Assembly (NCBI GenBank): GCA_964594545.1
Contig: CAZQNB010000003.1
Coordinates: 18,137 to 82,136, forward strand
Length of the DNA: 64,000 nt
Direction: 5' to 3'
Source of the DNA: an uncultured bacterium
GTDB lineage: Bacteria > Chlamydiota > Chlamydiia > Chlamydiales > SM23-39
Positions within the stretch are counted from its first letter, which is position 1. Each line of letters starts with the position of its first letter. The notes under the pieces are model-generated. The model worked only from the letters and a program-made list of their open reading frames with translations, was not told the DNA's origin and did not search any database. The position numbers and the translations under genes were made by a program. Shown here in pieces: positions 6,701 to 25,826 of this stretch.

Positions 6701-7679
6701 AGAATTTTATGTAGACTCTACATTGATTGGAACGGCAACAGATGCGCCTTATGCGGTCTCTTTGAATACAAAAGAGTTTTCAGACGGTTCTCATACGTTG
6801 AAAGCAGTCGCGTATAATAGATTGGGTACTTCTGCATCTGCGATTCAGAACGTGTCTATATATAACACCGCTCCTGTCGTTACCTTTACTTCTCCTGCAA
6901 AGGATAGTAAGGTCGCAGGTCAGGTTTCCCTGGGGGCAAAAGTAGCTAGCTCTCCGGTAGGGATTACACGGGTAGAGTTTTATGTAGATTCTAAATTAGT
7001 GGGCACTTCTACAGTCTCTCCTTATGTAGTCAAATTAGATACGCGAAAGGTTGCAGATGGTTTACGTGTACTGAAAGCTGTCGCCTATAATTCTTTAGGA
7101 GTTTCCGGCGCAACTTCTCAGAATGTAACAATATACAATAAACCGCCGACATTGAGTCTTGCGCTTTCACCAAATACAAGAGAAGTAACCGGGATTCTCA
7201 AGATTTCTGCAAAAGCAACAGATGTTATGGGGATTGCGCGGGTCGATTTCTTTGCCGGGTCTTTATTAATAGGGACTGATACAAGCGCCCCTTACGGAGC
7301 CCAGATAGATACAACAACCTTGCCGAATGGTTCCTGTTCAATTAAGGCTGTTGCATATAATAAATTAGGGACAATGGCATCTGCGATAGTGAATGTGATT
7401 ATTGCAAATCCTTTGCCTTCGGTTATTTTTACTGCCCCAAAGAATGGGTCGAGTGTGACCGGGGTGATTAATCTGGCTGCAAATATCGTCGATCCTGCGG
7501 CAATTCAGCGGGTAGAATATTATGTAGACTCTGTACTCTACGAATCTACATCAGCGGCTCCTTTTCAAGTTAAATTAGACACATCAAAATTGTCGAAAGG
7601 AAAACACAATTTGACAGTGATTGTGTATAATTATAAAGGAACTTCTAGCAAAGAGGCGATAATAATAACTGTGATTTAA
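3777..7679 (+). CDS. secreted S53 (sedolisin/kumamolisin-type) serine-carboxyl peptidase with eight C-terminal Ig-like repeats
   Basis: Signal-like N-terminus and a pro-kumamolisin-type activation region. Catalytic-type motifs are ETTLDVQMALALAP, SGDKGAYD and YGTSAAAPLWAS (SGTSxxxP-like serine). These are followed by 8 units of about 91 aa. Confidence 0.85.
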   Translation: MGCPMEKRVLSYFRYIALLAMTFVVPSAIASDIGNHDSHHCSTAVKLSGHVPDAVKNNCQCLECLDADECIPITFVLPLRNQEDLETLIQQIYDVNNKDSYGKYLSVEEFNKRFAPTQDDYDKVIAHAQEMGLEVVGMHENRMLLNTKGVVASIQSGFNVHLHTYQQPNGSQFYASDDDPEVPSHIANAIGGIIGLDNFSRGRRYSSVSMEKNQVEDENPVVSSNLRFPSGPGGGVSPMDLRRAYNLSSVNRRGAGQKIGIFAMGGCQVSDIQVYAAQFGMPIPNLVEILVDGGSGDSKNLETTLDVQMALALAPESQVYIYHGRNNVQGILNTYNRIASDNIVKQVSTSWGWVERAPGLIVLNAENAIFQQMAAQGQTMYAASGDKGAYDLYPNMELSIQDPGSQPYVVGVGGTTLAFNNSTGNYGSEIVWNYGPGWSSGGGVSNIWPIPSWQKDILTTYSKTHRNTPDVSLNADDYCIYYLGQWILAYGTSAAAPLWASFTALVNEQRQAVGLPSLGFANPIFYKVGKLSTQGASPFYDITSGDNLFYSASKGYDNATGWGSFNGANLLAVLSSIPNVAISINSTNSVVAGNVNVTINATDSLIGIERVDFYIDSQLIKTSTTTPYGVDVNTSTLEEGSHVFKAVGYNVIGSFSSATKSVTVHNGAPSVDFVTPVNNSHVAGTINIQANAVDSVAGIDRVEFYVDSTLIGQAAAAPYEVSFNTGVFSDGPHTLKGVAYNSLGTSASTIQSVSIYNTAPSVNFVTPVNNIHVAGTVNIQANAVDSVVGMARVEFYVDSTLIGTATDAPYAVSLNTKEFSDGSHTLKAVAYNRLGTSASTIQSVSIYNTAPSVSFAVPENNAKIAGVFNITANGVDSVVGMAQVEFYVDSTLIGTATDAPYAVSLNTKEFSDGSHTLKAVAYNRLGTSASTIQNVSIYNTAPSVSFTVPENNAKIAGVFNVTANGVDSVVGMARVEFYVDSTLIGTATDAPYAVSLNTKEFSDGSHTLKAVAYNRLGTSASAIQNVSIYNTAPVVTFTSPAKDSKVAGQVSLGAKVASSPVGITRVEFYVDSKLVGTSTVSPYVVKLDTRKVADGLRVLKAVAYNSLGVSGATSQNVTIYNKPPTLSLALSPNTREVTGILKISAKATDVMGIARVDFFAGSLLIGTDTSAPYGAQIDTTTLPNGSCSIKAVAYNKLGTMASAIVNVIIANPLPSVIFTAPKNGSSVTGVINLAANIVDPAAIQRVEYYVDSVLYESTSAAPFQVKLDTSKLSKGKHNLTVIVYNYKGTSSKEAIIITVI
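5508..7676 (+). repeat. in-frame tandem array of eight 273-bp (91-aa) Ig-like units inside the S53 peptidase gene; units at 6048-6866 are nearly identical
   Basis: Unit boundaries at 5775, 6048, 6321, 6594 and 6867 are exactly 273 nt apart. Consensus: ..APSV.F..P.NN..(I/V)AG..N(I/V).AN.VDSV.G(I/M).RVEFYVDSTLIG....APY.V.(L/F)NT..FSDG.HTLK.VAYN.LGTSAS.IQ.VSIYN. Confidence 0.95.
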
Positions 7680-17860: not shown

Positions 17861-19210
17861 GTGGAAAATTCTTCCAAAACTCAAGTTTCATGCATACTTG
17901 AGCCCCTACATCGTCTTGAAGCCTCATCTGATTCCATTCAAGATCGTAAGAAGTTGGTGGAATTTTTTTGTGTTCAAGTGATTCCTTTTATTGCCCGCTA
18001 TGCACCCATTCTTCCTCTCTTGGAGAAGCTCCGAACCGATTACAGAAACCTAAAGGATGCGATTAAAGCACATGAAAACAATGCGATTGCTGAATGTAAA
18101 AAAGCTTTTCGTCAAATCAAGAGAGATCTTAAAGCTCGAGCCTCGCTTCCCGATGAGGCAGTTCTTTGCCTTAATGAAGCTCGTTCTGTCTTTCTCAAAG
18201 GCCAATTCCGAGAAAGCCAAATCTACTCGGATACAGTTCGAGATCTATTGCAGCTCCTTTTAGAGGTAGGATTTAAAGATATCTGTGCAAAACATGCTGA
18301 ACTTATTGAAGTCGGTGCATGTATTCAAATAGATCTCACTCAACGTCCAGGATGGGTTCTTGTCAATGAACAGGGGAAGGGAAAGCTCTTCCCTTTTGAA
18401 GGTTTTAGCAAATCCGATGCACTTCGCAATCCCAATCTGATATTCCACCATCCTGAAATGGAACATGTGAAAACCGCACAAATCCACTTTTTCACATTTG
18501 ACCCTTCTTCGGAAAAAGCTGTTGCGGCATCTAAACGGGTGTATTGGGGCCAACTTCACGATCCTGCGGTTGTTTGGCACTATTTTGAATCTGCACTTTG
18601 GTGTTGGAATACTCCAAGCTCGTATTTTGAAGACAGGTTATCTTCTTCAGAAAGTCAGACGGAGTACGTAAAGTGGAGGGAAATTTCAAAGCTTCAAGGA
18701 GAGGTTCAGGATAACAATCGCATCGTAGTATTTACCGAACGGCTCTTTAAAGAAGGTCTTAAGACCTTAATCAATGCGATTTCCGTATTCATAGCAGAAG
18801 AAACGTACAAGGTTGAAGCCCTACCAAAAGTCATAGAGGAAGCTACTTTCAAGCTATTTTGGGAGCGAGAACAATTATGGATTTCTGTCGAATCTTCCGC
18901 AGGCAAAGAAGAGTTGTGCATTCAAAAATTTAAAGATTTTGGATACACAGAAGGGTCTGAGCCAAAGAAATTTTGCAAAAAATTAGTTCAGGTCTCTCCT
19001 GAAATACAGGTCCCGTATCAGATGCCATTTGATCGGGCAGCTCATGTTCTCGACAGGCTGAATCTTCCTCCCTCTCTGAAAAGGCAGTATTTTGGGACTG
19101 CGCAAAAAGACTCTGTAATCTACCAAGGTCCAGAAATTCATCTCAGTCTGGAGGCTAAAGATCTAGCCTCCATTATTCAAGATCTTCGGACCATTCATAA
19201 TTCTAACTAA
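17861..19210 (+). CDS. hypothetical protein (orphan, island-encoded)
   Basis: 449-aa ORF with a GTG start preceded by GAGGTAG. It diverges from the replication module. No recognisable motif. Confidence 0.55.
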   Translation: MENSSKTQVSCILEPLHRLEASSDSIQDRKKLVEFFCVQVIPFIARYAPILPLLEKLRTDYRNLKDAIKAHENNAIAECKKAFRQIKRDLKARASLPDEAVLCLNEARSVFLKGQFRESQIYSDTVRDLLQLLLEVGFKDICAKHAELIEVGACIQIDLTQRPGWVLVNEQGKGKLFPFEGFSKSDALRNPNLIFHHPEMEHVKTAQIHFFTFDPSSEKAVAASKRVYWGQLHDPAVVWHYFESALWCWNTPSSYFEDRLSSSESQTEYVKWREISKLQGEVQDNNRIVVFTERLFKEGLKTLINAISVFIAEETYKVEALPKVIEEATFKLFWEREQLWISVESSAGKEELCIQKFKDFGYTEGSEPKKFCKKLVQVSPEIQVPYQMPFDRAAHVLDRLNLPPSLKRQYFGTAQKDSVIYQGPEIHLSLEAKDLASIIQDLRTIHNSN

Positions 19211-19226
19211 TTTCTTCATGTTTAAA

Positions 19227-19258
19227 CATTGTAACTAATAAATTATTTAGTTACAATG
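19227..19258. promoter_or_regulatory. perfect 12-bp inverted repeat (cattgtaactaa-N8-ttagttacaatg) upstream of the packaging module
   Basis: Seen directly in the sequence. It lies between the orf449 stop and the 62-aa ORF / TerS genes. Operator-like or terminator-like. Confidence 0.4.
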
Positions 19259-19289
19259 ACCTATAGAGGAATTAAGGCGGGAATTTCTT

Positions 19290-19478
19290 ATGTCAGTAAA
19301 CCGAGAAGAAGCTCTAAACAAAATTGAACAGCAGCTTTGGCTTAAATGGCAAGACAAGCCAGCGACAGAAAAACAGAAGCACTTCCTCAATAAACTAGGA
19401 ATCCCATTCAGCCAAGATCTTTCCAAGGGAGATGCATTTTTCTTCTTACGTCAGCGGCTAAATCATTCAAACCAATAG
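19290..19478 (+). CDS. small hypothetical protein (62 aa)
   Basis: ATG preceded by AGGCGGGA. It sits immediately upstream of TerS and has no recognisable domain. Confidence 0.4.
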   Translation: MSVNREEALNKIEQQLWLKWQDKPATEKQKHFLNKLGIPFSQDLSKGDAFFFLRQRLNHSNQ

Positions 19479-19488
19479 AGGGACAGTA

Positions 19489-19926
19489 GTGCCAGCGCCT
19501 AAGGGACACAAGCCATATAACACGGCAGAGGATAGGGGTGGTAGACCTCGAAAGTGGACTGCTGAACGGATCGAGCAAGAAGCTGATGCGTTTGAAGAAT
19601 GGATGGGTCGACCAGATTCCATTTGGTACGAGGACTTTTGCTTAGAGCGAGGATATCTTCCTGACAATCTTGTTCGGTGGGCAAAGGAGAATGAAAGGTT
19701 TTGCACCGTTTATAAGAAATCACAGGTGTGGCAGAAAAGCAAGCTGGTCCGTGGCGGACTTTTGAACACCTATAACGCTGGATTTACCAAATTCGTCATG
19801 GGCAATACCTGTGGATGGTCAGATAAACAGCAGATTGGAGGCGACGCAACCAATCCTCTCTCTTTCATTCTACAACGGGTTGATGGTGCCTCTAAGGATT
19901 TAGTTGATGATCGAGAACACGCTTGA
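19489..19926 (+). CDS. terS: phage terminase small subunit
   Basis: MPAPKGHKPYNTAEDRGGRPRKWTAERIEQEADAFEEWM... is the typical N-terminal DNA-binding region of TerS proteins. It overlaps the downstream large subunit. GTG start. Confidence 0.7.
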   Translation: MPAPKGHKPYNTAEDRGGRPRKWTAERIEQEADAFEEWMGRPDSIWYEDFCLERGYLPDNLVRWAKENERFCTVYKKSQVWQKSKLVRGGLLNTYNAGFTKFVMGNTCGWSDKQQIGGDATNPLSFILQRVDGASKDLVDDREHA

Positions 19927-21397
19927 GCAAGCAGAAAAGCGATTAGCAGACCCTCTATGGAGATTGGATCATTTGTATTCGATCATCAACAAATCGGGAG
20001 ATAAAGTTTCTTTCCACCTGAACAGAGCACAGAAACAGCTTTATCAGGAGATGTGGTTCTGCAACCTCGTTCTCAAAGCTCGCCAACTCGGCGTTTCAAC
20101 TTTTGTCTGCTTACTTTTTCTTGATAGGTGTCTTTTCAATAGTAACCAGCATGCAGGGATCATTGCCCACACCCGCGAAGATGCCGAAGTCATGTTTCGT
20201 CGAATCAAATTTGCCTATGACAGTTTGCCGCCAGAGTTGAAGGCTGTTCGGCAAGTTAATACCGATAACGCCCGAGAGCTTCAGCTATCGAATGGGTCTT
20301 CTCTTCGTGTCGGCACTTCGATGCGCTCGTCATCCTTGCAATTTCTTCACATTTCCGAATTTGGAAAGATCTGCGCCAAATTCCCCGACAAAGCTAGAGA
20401 AATTATCACAGGCTCTTTGAACGCCCTGGCTTCTGGGCAATATGTTTTTATTGAATCTACAGCCGAGGGTCGTGAGGGATATTTTTATGAAATGGTCAAA
20501 GAAGCTCAAAAGCTCAAAGATTCAGGCAAAAAACTGACGCCCTTGGACTTTAAACTGCACTTTTTTCCTTGGTGGGCTGAGAAAGCCTATAGAATCGATT
20601 CACAAGGATCAACCATGTCAACAGAGCTCTCAACCTATTTTGACGCATTAGAAGTGTCTCTAAACGTTCGCCTGGACCTTGAGCAACGAGCTTGGTATGC
20701 CAAACGCGCTATTACACAAGGCGAAGACATGAAACGAGAGTACCCAAGCACCCCAGATGAAGCTTTCGAGGTATCCAATGAAGGGTTGTACTATGGCAGA
20801 CAGATATCTGAGGCAAGGCAACAAGGACGGATTCGTAAGATCTATTACGATGCAAATATTCCTGTTCACACGGCCTGGGATCTGGGCTATAACGATTCAA
20901 CGGCAATCTGGCTGTTTCTGCAATGTGGCCAGGAAATTCATCTCCTAGAGTATTACGAAAACAGCGGAGAAGCCCTAACCCATTATCTTCACTATCTGAA
21001 GAGTAAGCCTTACAGCTACGGTAAGCATCTCGTCCCTCATGATGCAGCAGTGCATGAATTCAGCACGGGTCTGACAAGAGTAGAGATTGCCAAAAGTCAT
21101 GGAATCAACTTCACGGTTGTTCCTGATATCGGCGTTAATGAAGGAATTGATGCCGTCCGAAATCTTTTGAATCGTTGCTGGTTCGATGAAGAAAAATGCG
21201 GACAGGGCCTTCATGCTTTAGAAAACTATCGAAAAGAGTGGAATGAGCGTTATGGTTGTTGGACCAGTCACCCTCTACATAATTTCGCTAGCCATGGTGC
21301 AGACGCTTTCAGAATCTTGGCAGTAGGTGGCAGTAAACTCGCAAATAAAGGTCTCAGTGCTGAGGAATGGAGAGACTTAAGAAGAAAATACACTTAG
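19907..21397 (+). CDS. terL: phage terminase large subunit
   Basis: Deviant Walker A VLKARQLGVSTF and Walker B-like IFIESTAEG. C-terminal RNaseH-like nuclease acidic motifs (HTAWDLGYNDSTAIW, LVPHDAAV). Confidence 0.8.
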   Translation: MIENTLEQAEKRLADPLWRLDHLYSIINKSGDKVSFHLNRAQKQLYQEMWFCNLVLKARQLGVSTFVCLLFLDRCLFNSNQHAGIIAHTREDAEVMFRRIKFAYDSLPPELKAVRQVNTDNARELQLSNGSSLRVGTSMRSSSLQFLHISEFGKICAKFPDKAREIITGSLNALASGQYVFIESTAEGREGYFYEMVKEAQKLKDSGKKLTPLDFKLHFFPWWAEKAYRIDSQGSTMSTELSTYFDALEVSLNVRLDLEQRAWYAKRAITQGEDMKREYPSTPDEAFEVSNEGLYYGRQISEARQQGRIRKIYYDANIPVHTAWDLGYNDSTAIWLFLQCGQEIHLLEYYENSGEALTHYLHYLKSKPYSYGKHLVPHDAAVHEFSTGLTRVEIAKSHGINFTVVPDIGVNEGIDAVRNLLNRCWFDEEKCGQGLHALENYRKEWNERYGCWTSHPLHNFASHGADAFRILAVGGSKLANKGLSAEEWRDLRRKYT

Positions 21398-21447
21398 AAA
21401 ATTTTATCGGTTTTTGGTAGTCTCGATTAAGATTTTTTTAACCAAGA

Positions 21448-22515
21448 ATGCTCAAAGTGGCCGATACATCGATTAGAGAATCAGAACTCATCCCTTCCAC
21501 ATACGTCGAATTGCTTAACATTCTCAAAGAAAAGATCCGCTCTTCTCAGATTAAAGCCTCTATTTCCGTAAACACAAAGCTGGTTAAACTCTACTGGGAA
21601 ATCGGGCTCGAGATTGTCCAAAGACAAAAGGAAGAAGGGTGGGGGACCAAAGTTATAGATAACCTGGCCAAGGATCTTAAAACCAGTTTTCCTCAAATGG
21701 CTGGATTCTCTCCTCGTAACCTATTCTATATGAAGCAATTTGCCGAAGCTTATCCAGAATTTTCAATTTTGCAGCAAGCTGCTGCAAAAATACCCTGGGG
21801 ACACAACATGCTCTTGATCGACAAGCTTGACGAGCTAGATAAGCGACTCTGGTATGCACAAAAGACAATTGAAAATGGATGGAGTCGGAATGTTTTGGAG
21901 ATGTGGATCGAATCGGATCTTTATAGCAGACAGGGAAAGGCTATTACGAACTTTTCGGCTACGCTTCCTCAACCAGATTCTGATCTTGCAAATGCGACTT
22001 TAAAAGACCCTTATTGCTTTGACTTCTTAAGAATGCGCGAAAAGGCTGATGAGGCTGAGCTTGAAGCGGGGCTGGTTGAGCACATTCAAAAAGTTCTTGT
22101 TGAGCTTGGCACTGGTTTTGCCTTTGTGGCTCGGCAATATCGGGTTGAAGTGGATGGAGAGGAATTTTTAATCGACTTACTTTTCTATCACTTTAAGCTT
22201 AAACGATTTGTTGTTGTAGAACTCAAGAGTGGCCCGTTCAAACCCGAGTATGCAGGAAAGATGAGTTTTTATCTGGCTGCGGTAGATGCACAACTGAAAC
22301 AGCCCAATGATGCCCCCTCGATTGGGATGATCCTTTGCAAAACAAAGAAAAAATTGATGGTTGAATATACTCTACAAGAAAGCCGCCGCCCTATTGGAGT
22401 TGCGACCTACACAACAAAGCTCGTTGAGACTCTTCCTAAGGATCTTCAAACTAGTTTACCGACGATCGAACAGATTGAAGCTCAACTATCTCGAGATCAA
22501 AGAACAAAAAGTTAA
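21448..22515 (+). CDS. DUF1016 (YhcG-type) PD-(D/E)xK nuclease-domain protein
   Basis: Full-length YhcG-like pattern: PWGHNMLLIDKL, LWYAQKTIENGWSRNVLE, DPYCFDFL, GTGFAFVARQYRVEVDGEEFLIDLLFYHFKLKRFVVVELK (D...ELK core). Confidence 0.8.
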   Translation: MLKVADTSIRESELIPSTYVELLNILKEKIRSSQIKASISVNTKLVKLYWEIGLEIVQRQKEEGWGTKVIDNLAKDLKTSFPQMAGFSPRNLFYMKQFAEAYPEFSILQQAAAKIPWGHNMLLIDKLDELDKRLWYAQKTIENGWSRNVLEMWIESDLYSRQGKAITNFSATLPQPDSDLANATLKDPYCFDFLRMREKADEAELEAGLVEHIQKVLVELGTGFAFVARQYRVEVDGEEFLIDLLFYHFKLKRFVVVELKSGPFKPEYAGKMSFYLAAVDAQLKQPNDAPSIGMILCKTKKKLMVEYTLQESRRPIGVATYTTKLVETLPKDLQTSLPTIEQIEAQLSRDQRTKS

Positions 22516-23522
22516 ACTTTCTCTACGCCGTAGGTGATGTGAAAGTCATGATCTCCGCCAAGGCGGCGAGAGAGCCCTTGCTCTAAACGTACTTGCTCTA
22601 GTTCAGGGCAAGCAACTGCTACAAGATGAATTTTTTTTGTTCCCTGATCAAAGCAGTCTGCATGAGAAATCCGAAAAGAAAATTTCTGGCCTAGTTTAGC
22701 AATTTGTCCTGTCTTTTCGGTTGCGACAATGACGCTGATATGGCCGCCAGCCATCCCTTTTTTGAAATAAGGAGGAGGCTCAATTCCCATTTTACCACAG
22801 TATTTGAGAAGTGAAAAGATTTGCTCATCAGGGATGTCGAGATAGACAAACCCTTGATCATTGCGTCTTAAGGTCCCTTCAAGAAGAGGGGCTGTTTCAT
22901 ATTTCCATTGGAGGAGTTTGTATTGGGGAATGGCTTGCTTTAAATGGGCGGCTGCTAGAATGCCCTGACAGAAACCTTCAAAATAATCTCCGTTTTTAAA
23001 ATGTTTGCCCGAATTGTAGAGTTCTAAAATAATCTGGATGGTAGCGCAAAGGACTATAATTTCTATCGAACCGTACAGTATAGAAGCAAGGAATAGTCCA
23101 TCGAGCATTCCTTTAGAAAATGCATTACAGGCACTCCAAGCATCGCCTATACAAACGAACGTTTTCAATTCGTCCATATGGTTTACTAAATCGCTGAATG
23201 AGGTGACTGTATAGCTTAAAACAGGATGAAAAAAGAGAAAGCCAAAAGCGGCAGTAGTCAAACAAGAATGGAAAAATTGATATACAGCTTGGGTAATATC
23301 TTTACGTTCCACTGCTTTTAGGGTAGCTTTCATTTGTGTGATAACACGAGCTCCAGATAGGGCCATCGAAAGAGGCATACGGCATGAGCGGTGGAGAGCT
23401 AATAATGGAAGTGCTGCAATAGCTTTTTGAGGCCAGTTGCAGCTTGTACCATCTGTAATGGGCTGCGGAACATCTCGAGAGTAATCTCTTTGATAGAGAA
23501 TAGGGTAATTAATAGCAGCCAT
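22512..23522 (-). CDS. membrane protein with C-terminal putative 2H-phosphoesterase-like domain
   Basis: Hydrophobic segments TAAFGFLFFHPVLSYTVTSF and LFLASILYGSIEIIVLCATIQIIL. The C-terminal domain carries two H-h-(S/T)-h motifs (GGHISVIV and DFHITYG) about 69 aa apart. ATG at 23522 with GAGG upstream. Confidence 0.55.
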   Translation of the reverse strand: MAAINYPILYQRDYSRDVPQPITDGTSCNWPQKAIAALPLLALHRSCRMPLSMALSGARVITQMKATLKAVERKDITQAVYQFFHSCLTTAAFGFLFFHPVLSYTVTSFSDLVNHMDELKTFVCIGDAWSACNAFSKGMLDGLFLASILYGSIEIIVLCATIQIILELYNSGKHFKNGDYFEGFCQGILAAAHLKQAIPQYKLLQWKYETAPLLEGTLRRNDQGFVYLDIPDEQIFSLLKYCGKMGIEPPPYFKKGMAGGHISVIVATEKTGQIAKLGQKFSFRISHADCFDQGTKKIHLVAVACPELEQVRLEQGLSRRLGGDHDFHITYGVEKV

Positions 23523-23569
23523 ATTTTTTACCTCTGTTTTTTCAGATCTTGCAGGGTTAATTTCCTTTA

Positions 23570-24178
23570 TTACCAATCGTAGAGTTGATGATTAGCTTGG
23601 AAATCGCCTACTTCTAATACTTCGTTAATTTGAATCTCTAAGCAGTCTTCCTTACATGACACAACACCTTGTTGGACGAGGAAATTAGGAGAGGCGTAAG
23701 CTTTTCCCCATCCCGTTCTGCCAAAATATACGGTTTCTAATTGGACGGGTTGATCTGCAATAAATTCGAGTTTTGCCTTTTGTACAGGGCATGCGAGCCA
23801 ATCATTTTTATGAAATGCCTGCGGGAATTTTTGTTTAAATACATCCATATTTGTGCCGCCCCTCCAGATCACTGTAGTTTTATTGGCCGCCACATCGAAA
23901 TAAATTTCGGCATCTGTAGGTAGATGGTATTTAGCTATGAACTCTTGAGCACGTTTTTTTGCTTCAAACTCGTTTGCAACGACGGCATCTAGCATCTGCG
24001 TGTCGATTGCTTGCTTTAGCAAAGCAGTTTCAGCTTTTAACCTTCGATACGAAGATTTTATAGATGTTTCACTTGTAGTATTTTGTTGAGTGGTTGGATG
24101 AACCTGTGCTTCTAAAGAAAATTCTTGAACCTGTTCTGGACGAGAAAAATTAATATGACTGGTAGGGATAAATTCCAT
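23570..24178 (-). CDS. hypothetical protein (first gene of island cargo operon)
   Basis: 202-aa ORF from the ATG at 24178, preceded by AAGGAG. No recognisable domain. A TTGAAA-N17-CATATT promoter-like pair lies at 24232-24204 (minus). Confidence 0.55.
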   Translation of the reverse strand: MEFIPTSHINFSRPEQVQEFSLEAQVHPTTQQNTTSETSIKSSYRRLKAETALLKQAIDTQMLDAVVANEFEAKKRAQEFIAKYHLPTDAEIYFDVAANKTTVIWRGGTNMDVFKQKFPQAFHKNDWLACPVQKAKLEFIADQPVQLETVYFGRTGWGKAYASPNFLVQQGVVSCKEDCLEIQINEVLEVGDFQANHQLYDW

Positions 24179-24642
24179 AATTAACTCCTTTTTTTGCACT
24201 TTGAATATGCTGGTTTTGTTGTTTTATTTCAACTTTAAGTAATTATTAGTGATGGTTGTGTTATGAATAAATAAAAATTAACTAAATTTGTTGACTATAA
24301 TAATGTGTGCAGAAGGTTTAGTACTTAAATCTTAAGAGAATATGCATACACTCTCTTTTTTCTCTGCAAAGGAGTATTTAGAAATTATAGGAATAATTTT
24401 AAAAGTTCTTGCGAGTTTCTGCCAGTCAAAAGTTCTGAATGCGTCCAACCGCCCCCATTCGTCTCTTGGGCACTTTTCCGCTATCGCTCCTTGGGCGTAC
24501 GGAGTACAGCCCTTCGTCGCGATAGCGAAAAATTGCCTCAAGATCCGAACCAAGGACCCCTAATATCTCGTCGGTAAATTTCCGTGATCCTGACTCGGGG
24601 CGTACGGAGTACAGCCCGCCTCGTCACGATCACAAAAATTTC

Positions 24643-24742
24643 CTAGGGCGATCTATTGGGGGCAAGCCCCCATTCTTTTGGATGATTCTTAAAATCCATC
24701 ATCGTTAGAAATGGTTTTCTCGCAGATGCTATAGTCGTTTAA
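24643..24742 (-). pseudogene. fossil 3' end of a second serine recombinase gene (about 30 codons)
   Basis: 24667-24721 aligns ungapped with 13917-13971 (45/55 identical). In the same frame it encodes RKPFLTMMDFKNHPKEWG, versus REPFLTILDFKNRPGEWG in the intact gene. The frame is closed by a stop a few codons upstream. Confidence 0.6.
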
Positions 24743-25565: not shown

Positions 25566-25628
25566 GGACTTTGTACAATTTCATGACTTCCTCGCTGACG
25601 CTCGTCAGTCATGAAATTGTACAAAGTC
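25566..25628. repeat. 63-bp hairpin (23-bp perfect stem)
   Basis: ggactttgtacaatttcatgact ... agtcatgaaattgtacaaagtc, directly after the CPBP gene stop. Confidence 0.85.
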
Positions 25629-25634
25629 GAATAG

Positions 25635-25826
25635 TTCTCAGGGTATATAGTGCTTCCAGTTGAAAGGCCCCTAGACGAAAACTGATTAAAAGCCTCAAAT
25701 TTCGAATAAAAGGTCGGGGTCAATATTGAATTAATATTAACCCCGACCTTTTATTCGAAATTTGAGAGCTTTTAATTCAGTTTTCGTAGGTGGCTTTCAA
25801 CTGGAAGCACTATATACCAGAGAAAA
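25635..25826. repeat. 192-bp palindromic element
   Basis: ttctcagggtatatagtgcttccagttgaaagg...aaaaggtcggggt / accccgacctttt...ctttcaactggaagcactatataccagagaa. It ends 7 nt before the GH3 gene stop. Confidence 0.88.

Follow-up and report, generated by a model that had tools for sequence, protein, structure and literature searches.

A chlamydial tRNA-Tyr island with an intact TerS-TerL terminase pair as a candidate member of a new phage satellite family

Introduction

Why should a chlamydial genome keep an intact pair of tailed-phage terminase genes when no portal or capsid gene lies beside them? Gene exchange among environmental chlamydiae inside amoebae is poorly understood, and to our knowledge no tailed phage of Chlamydiae and no helper phage is known. 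The phages isolated from Chlamydiae so far are Microviridae only (Chlamydiamicrovirus; PMC5010888). A first-pass annotation of the 64 kb stretch of DNA analysed here, which we call the window, had offered two readings of the pair: a satellite that carries its own complete terminase, or the stump of a Caudoviricetes prophage. Here we describe the terminase genes, the island around them and the related loci of other Chlamydiae, and weigh these readings against further alternatives.

Results

An intact terminase pair

The two terminase genes of the window are as follows.

19489-19926, + strand: TerS, P22 gp3-like small terminase subunit, 145 aa
19904-21397, + strand: TerL, large terminase subunit with ATPase and RNase H-like nuclease, intact, 496-497 aa

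Both open reading frames are intact, as the first-pass annotation had described them, including its overlapping arrangement and its full-length TerL of 497 aa. The TerS protein begins MPAPKGHKPYNTAEDRGGRPRKW. TerL has 497 aa when read from 19904 and 496 aa from the ATG at 19907, which is the likelier start, and the two genes share an overlap of 20-23 nt. Shine-Dalgarno-like motifs stand ahead of both TerS (AGAGGGA) and TerL (AAGGA), and the pair appears to be translationally coupled. TerS scores 27.2 bits against Pfam GP3_package, slightly below the 29.4 cut-off, and its homologue in P. naegleriophila carries an unmarked, strong-class match to the same family in a precomputed table. TerL gave no Pfam match at E<=0.01; it matches PHROG phrog_2 (‘terminase large subunit’, 5e-33) as well as phrog_2472/26724, and aligns in the PDB with the T4 gp17 ATPase domain across the Walker A/B region (2e-4). 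Among cultured phages, PS-1, phiES15 and others have annotated TerLs that share 45-48% identity with it across 94% of its length. Judged by sequence comparison, the matches of TerL, TerS and the DUF1016 nuclease encoded downstream are far beyond chance.

The motifs of TerL argue against decay. KARQLGVST and a nuclease motif, both picked out in the first-pass annotation, occupy residues 58-66 and residues 325-336 (WDLGYNDSTAIW) respectively. The Walker A motif is deviant, K58-ARQLG-V-ST, with its lysine upstream of the glycine, a form that Mitchell & Rao reportedly described in 2004 for lambda gpA-type TerLs. We considered the missing canonical GK(S/T) lysine as a sign of decay and rejected it, because the identical motif occurs in the cultured phages PS-1 and phiES15. 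We also found LHIS-E152 (Walker B and catalytic glutamate) and the coupling motif IESTAEGR, and all ATPase and nuclease motifs are identical in these two phages, which are plaque-forming or inducible, so the disruption that would have marked a decaying pseudogene is absent. The nuclease motifs WD326LGxxDSTAIW, PHD380 and SHGAD467AFR are invariant in 46 TerL homologues and in the cultured phages.

Sequence motifs, together with Foldseek searches of an AlphaFold model (pLDDT 84), identify both an N-terminal ASCE ATPase and a C-terminal RNase H-like nuclease. The model matches full-length T4 gp17 (2.6e-17), the TerLs of D6E, HK97 and Sf6, and the nuclease domains of P22, SPP1 and G20c. The predicted fold is thus that of a full two-domain TerL, and the structure prediction that had been suggested as a check agrees with the catalytic motifs found intact by alignment. 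At the codon level, pN of 0.13-0.31 in TerL and 0.19-0.43 in TerS stands against saturated synonymous sites (pS 0.72-0.93 for TerL), a pattern by which both genes are under strong purifying selection.

The island at tRNA-Tyr

The pair lies within an island of ~10.6 kb (about 13916-24460) that is inserted in the 3′ end of a tRNA-Tyr gene and contains a large serine integrase, a DUF927 primase-helicase, TerS, TerL and cargo genes. Its other features are listed here.

13824-15389, - strand: large serine recombinase (integrase), 521 aa; Pfam Resolvase, Recombinase and Zn_ribbon_recom
13841-13922, + strand: tRNA-Tyr(GTA), found by ARAGORN and Rfam; integration target
15530-17293, - strand: DUF927 primase-helicase, replication module, 587 aa; Pfam DUF927, 6e-76
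17290-17640, - strand: SpoVG-like small nucleic-acid-binding protein; Pfam SpoVG, 1e-9
17641-17860, no strand: divergent intergenic region that parts the leftward replication/integration genes from the rightward packaging genes
17861-19210, + strand: 449 aa protein upstream of TerS; open reading frame call
19290-19478, + strand: 62 aa open reading frame directly upstream of TerS, with a 43%-identical homologue at the same position in locus L014
21448-22515, + strand: DUF1016/YhcG PD-(D/E)xK nuclease, cargo; Pfam DUF1016_N 1e-46, YhcG_C 1.6e-62
22512-23576, - strand: 354 aa cargo protein with C-terminal 2H phosphoesterase (‘Swiss Army Knife’); Pfam 2H-SAK 26.8 bits, at the cut-off
23570-24199, - strand: 209 aa cargo protein; open reading frame call, no function from Pfam/PHROG
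24443-24460, + strand: attR, right junction; degenerate tRNA-Tyr 3′ end, 16/18 nt (repeat D5)
24666-24730, + strand: scar of an older related island; tRNA 3′ end plus integrase 3′-end sequence (repeat D1)

The tRNA-Tyr 3′ end forms the left junction, attL, and is repeated at 24443-24460 and 24666-24676. The 3′ end of the integrase gene runs antisense across the tRNA; its product matches a PHROG integrase family (phrog_95, 8e-75), and the DUF927 protein matches a DNA primase family (phrog_1139, 3e-83). The SpoVG-like protein is a possible regulator, a role that we infer. Three sigma-70-like sites lie on the + strand at 17686-17792 in the divergent intergenic region, where such sites are no more frequent than in shuffled sequence, and a scan for promoters and terminators likewise gave no richer a yield than shuffled sequence. 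An Rfam scan of the window returned tRNAs only. On the packaging side, the 449 aa protein has no match in Pfam, PHROG or PADLOC and only five homologues, one of which shares a contig with an 86%-identical TerL. We considered it as a hidden portal or capsid protein; its AF2 model has a pLDDT of 55 and no Foldseek match (E<=0.001, PDB and BFVD), which is not evidence either way. TerL is followed by the DUF1016 nuclease rather than a portal, in agreement with the first-pass annotation, and this nuclease matches PADLOC PDC-S02 (6e-150), making it a candidate defence gene.

A related MAG, L020, carries the same island at the matching tRNA-Thr/Tyr site, with shared flanking genes and tRNA order and a 96% identical integrase. 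The assignment of the window to Chlamydiae is based on this shared context, on named homologues of TerL and on syntenic MAG loci. The 35 nt around attR (24422-24456) are kept at the right end of the L020 island, and the scar at 24666-24730, which is 80% identical to 13916-13980, also matches L020 at 7552-7607. Within the L020 island, a deletion of 4.47 kb has joined a shortened DUF927 gene to the part of TerL that encodes residues 312-497. Because the attR of the window is degenerate and L020, the nearest relative of its island, carries this internal deletion, the copy in the window may be old or immobile.

A recurrent core in Chlamydiae

About 30 chlamydial loci share the same core, in which an integrase and an interchangeable self-replication module (primase, helicase or both) precede TerS and TerL; defence or accessory cargo comes next. 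TerS is always paired with TerL (18 chlamydial genome loci), and both are full length in most loci. Upstream, the relatives encode a tyrosine integrase, which adjoins a tRNA gene, and a replicase that may be DnaB-like, Toprim, RepB_primase+DUF3987 or DUF927. Downstream of TerL they encode AbiE, HsdM, Schlafen/AlbA, CoiA-like, GNAT/ABC/AadA-like or ankyrin proteins, and in some of them host genes such as the kdp operon follow TerL. The core also includes open reading frames that lack detectable homologues, of ~300-340 aa after the integrase, of ~495-576 aa after the helicase, and small ones before TerS; together with the 449 aa protein of the window, these could hide unexpected functions.

Element sizes range from 5.5 to 17 kb, and the smallest core, from integrase to TerL, comprises seven genes in 5.5 kb. 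Some elements are bounded by perfect, tRNA-derived att repeats of 42-53 nt, including L007 (17.3 kb, 42-nt repeats) and L010 (14.8 kb, 53-nt repeats). Three MAGs hold two different copies each. Both ends of the 10.9 kb contig L129, and of this contig only, consist of the same 25-nt tRNA-like sequence; we did not count this as an excised or circular form, as it may be an assembly break at att repeats. Decayed copies also occur, in that L130 encodes an N-terminally truncated TerL of 431 aa beside a DUF1016 fragment, and L019 and L010 carry TerL fragments. IMG/VR lists L041-L046 among its viral contigs, presumably owing to the terminase, and the element architecture described here lets these loci be reclassified.

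Structural genes and the podophage L047

Homologues of portal, MuF and capsid proteins were found nowhere in the 64 kb window. In phmmer searches with the portal, MuF, scaffold and MCP proteins of PS-1, phiES15 and the uncultured podophage L047, none was found in the window or in 32 chlamydial/element loci; this screen spans three portal/capsid types, is insensitive to others, and recovers portals in just 4 of 88 other loci. Since such a negative is weak alone, we relied mainly on Pfam/PHROG annotation of neighbouring genes and on a positive control. The annotation yielded no structural gene within +/-10 kb of the related loci, and neither in the window nor in the ~30 related chlamydial loci does a portal or head gene follow the adjacent TerS and TerL. 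The att-delimited relatives likewise had no detectable capsid, portal, protease or head-tail adaptor/connector genes of their own. In the positive control, related TerLs outside Chlamydiae were followed by a P22- or SU10-type portal in 6 of the 10 loci tested, and the TerL of the cultured PS-1 and phiES15 precedes portal, MuF, scaffold and MCP. A complete cognate prophage, which would have reduced the pair to a duplicated fragment, was not found within the 64 kb of this genome. The island also contains no lysis genes that we could find.

The same terminase module is present in L047, a phage of ~37 kb whose TerS and TerL are 50% and 57% identical to those of the window, and in which a P22_portal and a major head protein are encoded downstream of TerL. 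In a neighbour-joining tree its TerL nests in the clade of the elements with 100% bootstrap. Its sister phage L123 has an 81% identical portal and an unrelated TerL. As far as sequence can tell, the terminase module of the elements thus shares ancestry with that of a real phage, and L047 is a candidate helper or donor.

Discussion

We consider it slightly the more probable outcome that the island is a PICI-like phage satellite that brings a complete terminase holoenzyme and belongs to a tRNA-integrating family of environmental Chlamydiae. We favour this reading because the island sits at a tRNA with its own integrase and primase-helicase, because the core recurs without structural genes, and because some elements retain perfect att repeats while TerS and TerL stay intact under purifying selection. 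Of the two readings in the first-pass annotation, the satellite is therefore the one that gains; the prophage stump loses ground in general, as structural remnants are lacking, and keeps it for individual copies (L020, L130 and L019) that do decay. The wider claim, that environmental Chlamydiae carry a large unrecognised class of satellites with complete TerS and TerL and without capsid genes, appears to us evenly poised between true and false.

That the island functions as a satellite is an inference, as are its induction and excision, the packaging of concatemers, the headful mode and the identity of the helper; the cycle would run as follows. A tailed phage whose portal is of P22/SU10 type, with L047 as a candidate, would grow in the cell and act as helper, and the serine integrase would excise the island. 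The DUF927 primase-helicase would then replicate it into concatemers, its own TerS would bind a pac site on the island, and its own TerL would dock on helper procapsids and fill them with island concatemers by a headful mechanism. The island and its cargo would spread, and helper packaging would face competition. Neither a regulator of AlpA, Stl or MerR type (by Pfam/PHROG, in the island) nor a gene for capsid-size redirection was found; the SpoVG-like protein and the small unassigned open reading frames are candidates for the regulator.

An alternative that we judge unlikely is that the terminase is kept for another role, either as an anti-phage decoy or interference factor, which would occupy or sabotage an invading phage's procapsids or DNA, or as a nuclease-ATPase in replication or resolution of the element. 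Consistent with this, no helper phage is known, defence cargo directly follows TerL (AbiE, type I RM, Schlafen/AlbA, and DUF1016 as PADLOC PDC-S02), and satellites are known to interfere with the packaging of their helpers (PMC11417361). Against it, every ATPase, coupling and nuclease motif is kept along with a cognate TerS in an apparently coupled pair, as packaging requires, and the genes to which the pair is linked include an integrase and a replication module, not defence genes alone. Moreover, interference and self-packaging can coexist in one element.

It is quite unlikely that the pair is a remnant left when a Caudoviricetes prophage decayed and lost its structural genes by deletion. 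The decay itself is real, as seen in the deletion fusion of L020, the truncated TerL of L130 and the TerL fragments of L019 and L010, and the degenerate attR of the window with the scar of an older island alongside points the same way. However, the marks of a degraded prophage, namely pseudogenes or gene fragments, loosened selection and a gene set that does not recur, were encountered only in L020, L130 and L019. The compact core instead recurs in ~30 loci with differing integrases and replicases and structural-gene fragments in none, some elements keep perfect att repeats, and in most loci full-length TerS and TerL are maintained by strong purifying selection. A unit of seven genes in 5.5 kb is not the outcome to expect again and again from a ~40 kb prophage decaying at random.

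Just as doubtful is a dispersed system, in which the locus supplies only the packaging module and the genes for capsid, portal and tail are located at other chromosomal sites, as they would be for a GTA or a split prophage. Inspection spanned 64 kb here and +/-10 kb at the other loci, which leaves room for such genes, and a terminase and a tail tip protein are among the phage-like genes reported from some chlamydial plasmids (PMC7846284). However, the module is mobile and multi-copy, with varied tRNA sites and integrases, two distinct copies in three MAGs and linked replication genes of its own, and a domesticated single-copy system would look otherwise. A complete minimal virus, with capsid and portal hidden among unannotated genes, is highly improbable: several conserved core genes do lack detectable homologues and the model of the 449 aa protein lacks the quality needed to classify it, but the unassigned open reading frames vary from element to element, the smallest unit has just three of them (299, 85 and 114 aa), which is too few for portal, capsid, scaffold and tail, and the related TerLs with an identifiable downstream gene all pair with a P22/SU10-type portal of 600-750 aa (6/10 loci).

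If the satellite reading is correct, these obligate intracellular bacteria are hosts to tailed podophages with P22/SU10-type portals, and satellite transduction carries defence and accessory genes between environmental Chlamydiae. A widespread, selected and mobile TerS/TerL module suggests that genes travel between Chlamydiae in the capsids of tailed phages, and L047-type podophages, P22/SU10-type portals and att sites provide handles for finding the phages concerned. The element would also constitute a new satellite design, in which the whole terminase is replaced rather than only retargeted, and one would then have to ask what keeps a foreign TerL able to work with helper portals.

Comparison with known systems

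The terminase modules of temperate phages (PS-1, phiES15, Erwinia EhrS_49 and Klebsiella prophages) and of L047 have TerLs with identical catalytic motifs; there the genes after TerL are those for portal, MuF, scaffold and capsid, whereas in the island they are the DUF1016 nuclease and cargo. Among chlamydial islands, PnaK_GI2 of Protochlamydia naegleriophila KNic encodes a 65% identical TerL preceded by TerS and a RepB_primase/DUF3987 gene, and differs in its replicase and integration site. PnaK_GI2 was mentioned earlier in passing as a genomic island, not as a family member or as satellite-like. In the literature searched, chlamydial terminase islands are nowhere described as satellites, and no satellite is reported in Chlamydiae.

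cfPICIs, which also encode portal and protease, resemble the island in having terL and TerS, an integrase and a pri-rep module. Unlike the island and its ~30 relatives, where none of these genes was found, they further encode a major capsid protein, a head-tail adaptor and a connector, and in the 2023 survey of satellite families they alone have terL in their core set (PMC10085698). The marine VEIMEs/PICMIs are likewise small and integrative; they encode an integrase and a primase/helicase, lack capsid genes and in some cases have TerS, but their TerL is presumed to be helper-derived (PMC9618062) and they occupy other host clades; a terminase of any kind is present in just ~8% of VEIMEs (PMC12822802). 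Their concatemers are reported to be packaged into helper-size capsids (PMC12822802; PMC9618062), and by analogy we propose that concatemer packaging would reconcile the size of the chlamydial elements with that of the capsids.

PICIs such as SaPIs and EcCICFT073 have a core of integrase, regulator, pri-rep, capsid-morphogenesis gene and TerS (PMC10085698). The island shares with them its small size (~10 kb, against a PICI median of 9.5 kb; PMC10085698), an integrase at one end with site-specific integration, a primase-replicase module of its own, the order of integrase, primase-replicase, TerS and accessory or defence genes, and the absence of lysis and tail genes. It differs in that it has a full-length TerL besides TerS and no detectable AlpA/Stl/MerR-type regulator or capsid-morphogenesis gene, that the copy in the window uses a large serine integrase, and that its host phylum is Chlamydiae. 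By gene content, the full TerL places the island outside PICIs proper under the published scheme (PMC10085698). Whether satellites with a complete terminase represent a third strategy, between PICIs with TerS only and cfPICIs with terminase plus capsid, is a proposal for which we find the case and the counter-case equally strong.

An intact terminase pair on an integrative island at tRNA-Tyr

The overlapping TerS/TerL pair described in the first-pass annotation is borne out by ORFs at the expected positions and by homology matches for both subunits, and it lies in an integrative island in which all genes are intact. The island spans approximately 13916–24460, roughly 10.6 kb, because the 3′ end of tRNA-Tyr recurs at 24443–24460 with 16 of 18 nt matching.

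Features of the island (window coordinates, strand, feature)
13731–13922: tRNA-Thr and tRNA-Tyr genes
13824–15389, minus: large serine recombinase (Pfam/PHROG), 3′ end antisense through tRNA-Tyr
15530–17293, minus: DUF927 primase-helicase (Pfam/PHROG)
17290–17640, minus: SpoVG-like protein (Pfam)
19489–19926, plus: TerS, GTG start, 145 aa
19904–21397, plus: TerL, 497 aa counted from TTG
21448–22515, plus: DUF1016_N + YhcG_C protein (Pfam), directly after TerL
22512–23576, minus: 354 aa cargo protein with a C-terminal 2H-SAK (‘Swiss Army Knife’) phosphoesterase domain (Pfam, at cut-off)

On the plus strand, a 449 aa protein without an assigned family and a 62 aa ORF precede TerS, TerL and the DUF1016 nuclease, which, as first annotated, occupies the position after TerL in place of a portal. 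In PADLOC, the DUF1016 protein hits PDC-S02, a candidate defence family (6e-150), and beyond its gene lie two minus-strand cargo genes, one encoding a 209 aa protein and the other the 354 aa protein, whose N-terminal part matched no family and which may be a component of a conflict system or an effector.

The integrase ORF runs antisense through the entire tRNA-Tyr gene (13824–13923), as it also does in L020, a related lake metagenome-assembled genome (MAG), so the integrase coding sequence contains the tRNA-homologous part of attP. The tRNA-Tyr 3′ end occurs once more at 24666–24730 (80% identical over 65 nt to 13916–13980); this copy includes integrase 3′-end sequence and is therefore the scar left by an older island related to this one. 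Together with a 20-nt perfect direct repeat beyond attR (24493–24512 and 24598–24617), this scar suggests repeated or tandem integration at tRNA-Tyr. Farther along, between CPBP-protease-like and GH3 (NagZ-like) genes, 25567–25818 holds nested near-perfect inverted repeats, comprising a 22-nt perfect inverted pair (25567–25588/25607–25628) and a composite palindrome of ~177 nt (25642–25818; arm pairs of 32, 22 and 34 nt, 94%, 82% and 97% complementary), which may represent a MITE-like element or act as a bidirectional terminator.

In L020 this island likewise sits at the tRNA-Thr/Tyr site, with an integrase and a DUF927 protein 96% identical to those of the window and 35 nt conserved around attR. 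An internal deletion of 4.47 kb (window 16364–20836) joins its truncated DUF927 gene to TerL residues 312–497, and the L020 copy is thus decaying, whereas the window copy has all its genes intact.

TerS begins with MPAPKGHKPYNTAEDRGGRPRKW. For TerL, ATG at 19907 is a likelier start than TTG at 19904 because most homologues are 494–498 aa long. The two ORFs overlap by 20–23 nt, each preceded by a Shine-Dalgarno-like motif. TerS scored 27.2 bits against Pfam GP3_package, below the 29.4 cut-off, and its homologue in Protochlamydia naegleriophila has a strong-class, unmarked match to this family in a precomputed table. TerL had no Pfam match at E ≤ 0.01; it matched phrog_2 ‘terminase large subunit’ (5e-33), two further unannotated PHROGs covering its two halves, and the T4 gp17 ATPase domain in a PDB search, and is 45–48% identical to annotated cultured-phage TerLs with 94% of its length aligned.

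TerL motifs, fold and selection

We aligned TerL with those of the cultured phages PS-1 and phiES15, the uncultured podophage contig L047 and three chlamydial homologues. TerL proved full length and motif-bearing as first described, with LKARQLGxST, LH(I/V)SE, IESTAEGR, WD(L/I)GxxDSTAIW, PHD and SH(G/A)xDxFR kept across the alignment, and none of the ATPase or nuclease motifs was disrupted as in a pseudogene. In its Walker A the lysine of the canonical GK(S/T) is missing, and an invariant lysine stands five residues upstream of that position instead. We rejected this as a sign of decay and regard it as a family trait, since the bona fide phages PS-1 and phiES15 carry exactly the same form; it is similar to the deviant Walker A of lambda gpA-type TerLs, reportedly described by Mitchell and Rao in 2004. 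Structure prediction with AlphaFold from 46 homologues (pLDDT 84) gave a model that retrieved full-length T4 gp17 (2.6e-17), along with the D6E, HK97 and Sf6 TerLs and isolated nuclease domains of P22, SPP1 and G20c. Against 21 homologues, pS for TerL was saturated (0.72–0.93) and pN was 0.13–0.31, which, with the same pattern of low pN and saturated pS for TerS, indicates long-term purifying selection on both coding sequences.

A family of terminase-bearing elements across Chlamydiae

The database holds more than 7,400 TerL homologues, and the best 120 cluster representatives are 60–92% identical, the few named ones being mostly ‘Chlamydiia’, ‘Parachlamydiaceae’ or P. naegleriophila. Some contigs may have been placed in the wrong MAG by binning, as with an 86%-identical copy that carries the label Obscuribacterales. 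On one-genome-per-species contigs we found 20 chlamydial loci, with TerS and TerL paired in 18. ORF clustering, Pfam and PHROG annotation, and nine contigs with precomputed Pfam matches gave a recurrent one-strand layout: tRNA, tyrosine integrase, a ~300–340 aa protein of unknown function, small ORF(s), a replicase, one or two small ORFs, TerS, TerL and variable cargo. The replicase can be a DnaB-like helicase with a ~495–576 aa unknown protein, a 700–780 aa Toprim protein, a 780–860 aa RepB_primase+DUF3987 protein, a 354 aa DUF3987 protein or DUF927. Cargo includes AbiEi/AbiEii, type I HsdM, Schlafen/AlbA, CoiA-like, DUF3800, ankyrin and DUF1016 proteins, HNH, GNAT, ABC and AadA-like genes, and HigBA-like pairs. 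In P. naegleriophila KNic, a RepB_primase/DUF3987 gene is followed by the TerS-TerL pair and then the kdp operon.

Perfect repeats border a 17.3 kb element (L007; 42 nt of the tRNA-Phe 3′ end) and a 14.8 kb element (L010; 53 nt of tRNA-Lys), and a 10,926 bp contig (L129) has the same 25-nt tRNA-like sequence at both ends. From integrase to TerL, the most compact unit measures 5.5 kb and contains seven genes. Two distinct elements coexist in each of three MAGs (L001 and L005, L009 and L013, L004 and L014), and truncated copies occur at L019, L020 and L130. Within the att-bounded L010 element, a second, short TerL fragment (14627–14842) suggests recombination between two elements or tandem insertion.

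Downstream of TerL, some relatives encode a 280–360 aa protein and then a giant protein of 1479–1624 aa (L045, 5830–11513; L046, 12305–18031; L017, 11622–17116). These giants are mutually homologous, and the one tested, from L045, has an LPD38 ‘large polyvalent protein’ domain; they are a recurrent large cargo or effector. Several IMG/VR ‘viral’ contigs (L041–L046) are integrase-replicase-TerS-TerL elements with no structural genes detected, and the terminase is presumably the reason for the viral label. The lake-water MAGs L006, L008 and L020 are titled ‘Chlamydia trachomatis’ in public records, probably a taxonomy-label error because flanking genes and named homologues point to environmental Parachlamydiales-like organisms.

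Structural genes and exchange with a phage lineage

Portal, capsid, protease and tail domains were found in none of ~200 neighbour genes annotated with Pfam and PHROG, a set that covers every gene within the att-delimited L007 element. This is stronger support for absence than our phmmer screen, in which portal, MuF, scaffold and capsid proteins of PS-1, phiES15 and L047 matched no ORF of at least 50 aa in 32 chlamydial/element loci and the 64 kb window; that screen was narrow: of 88 other loci, it recovered portals in just 4. As a positive control we took related TerLs from outside Chlamydiae (41–53% identical), for which the next large ORF downstream was a P22-/SU10-type portal in 6 of 10 loci, and PS-1 and phiES15 have the order TerS-TerL-portal-MuF-scaffold-capsid.

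The IMG/VR contigs L047–L049 encode a TerS 50% and a TerL 57% identical to those of the window, followed by an HNH gene, a 722 aa P22-like portal and a major head protein. This portal defines a large family of 35–38 kb contigs, one of which, L123, has a typical podophage layout. In a neighbour-joining tree the L047 TerL falls inside the element clade, sister to a Parachlamydia MAG copy and L045 (100% bootstrap), whereas L123 has a portal 81% identical to that of L047 beside an unrelated TerL (33–37% identical). The terminase module has therefore moved between the L047-type phage lineage and the elements, and L047 and L123 are a clear case of its replacement inside a single lineage of phages. 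These phages and chlamydial contigs also have a few further small genes in common.

Possible packaging route and alternatives

We infer all functions of the island genes. A helper phage would trigger excision by the integrase, after which the island could replicate with its own primase-helicase; its TerS would recognise a pac site on the island, and its TerL would dock on helper procapsids. Packaging may be headful, as suggested by a P22 gp3-type TerS and by gp17 as best structural match, and a ~37 kb head would be filled by concatemers of 5.5–17 kb islands. Packaging as concatemers is reported for VEIMEs and PICMIs (PMC12822802).

That the terminase is instead kept for interference or replication seems unlikely. 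We consider a prophage stump, the alternative raised at first pass, improbable; a complete cognate prophage was sought and none was found within the 64 kb window. A dispersed GTA-like system is just as improbable, and an unrecognised minimal virus is very improbable indeed.

Comparison with known satellites

Our preferred reading, a satellite carrying its own complete terminase, was one of two raised at first pass; the PICI-type layout and the intact TerS and TerL favour it, and satellite function itself stays putative. No tailed phage or satellite is reported for the host phylum Chlamydiae, and our literature search found no paper that groups the chlamydial islands into a family or treats them as satellites. 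The island resembles PICIs in its integrase, own replicon, packaging genes, accessory/defence cargo and ~10 kb size (PMC10085698), but falls outside that class because it has a full TerL and no regulator or capsid-morphogenesis gene was detected in it. It likewise falls outside the cfPICIs, as no capsid, portal, protease or connector genes were detected in it. For VEIMEs, the helper is presumed to supply the large terminase (PMC9618062), whereas the island encodes its own. We rate it as a satellite-like element with a new packaging gene set.
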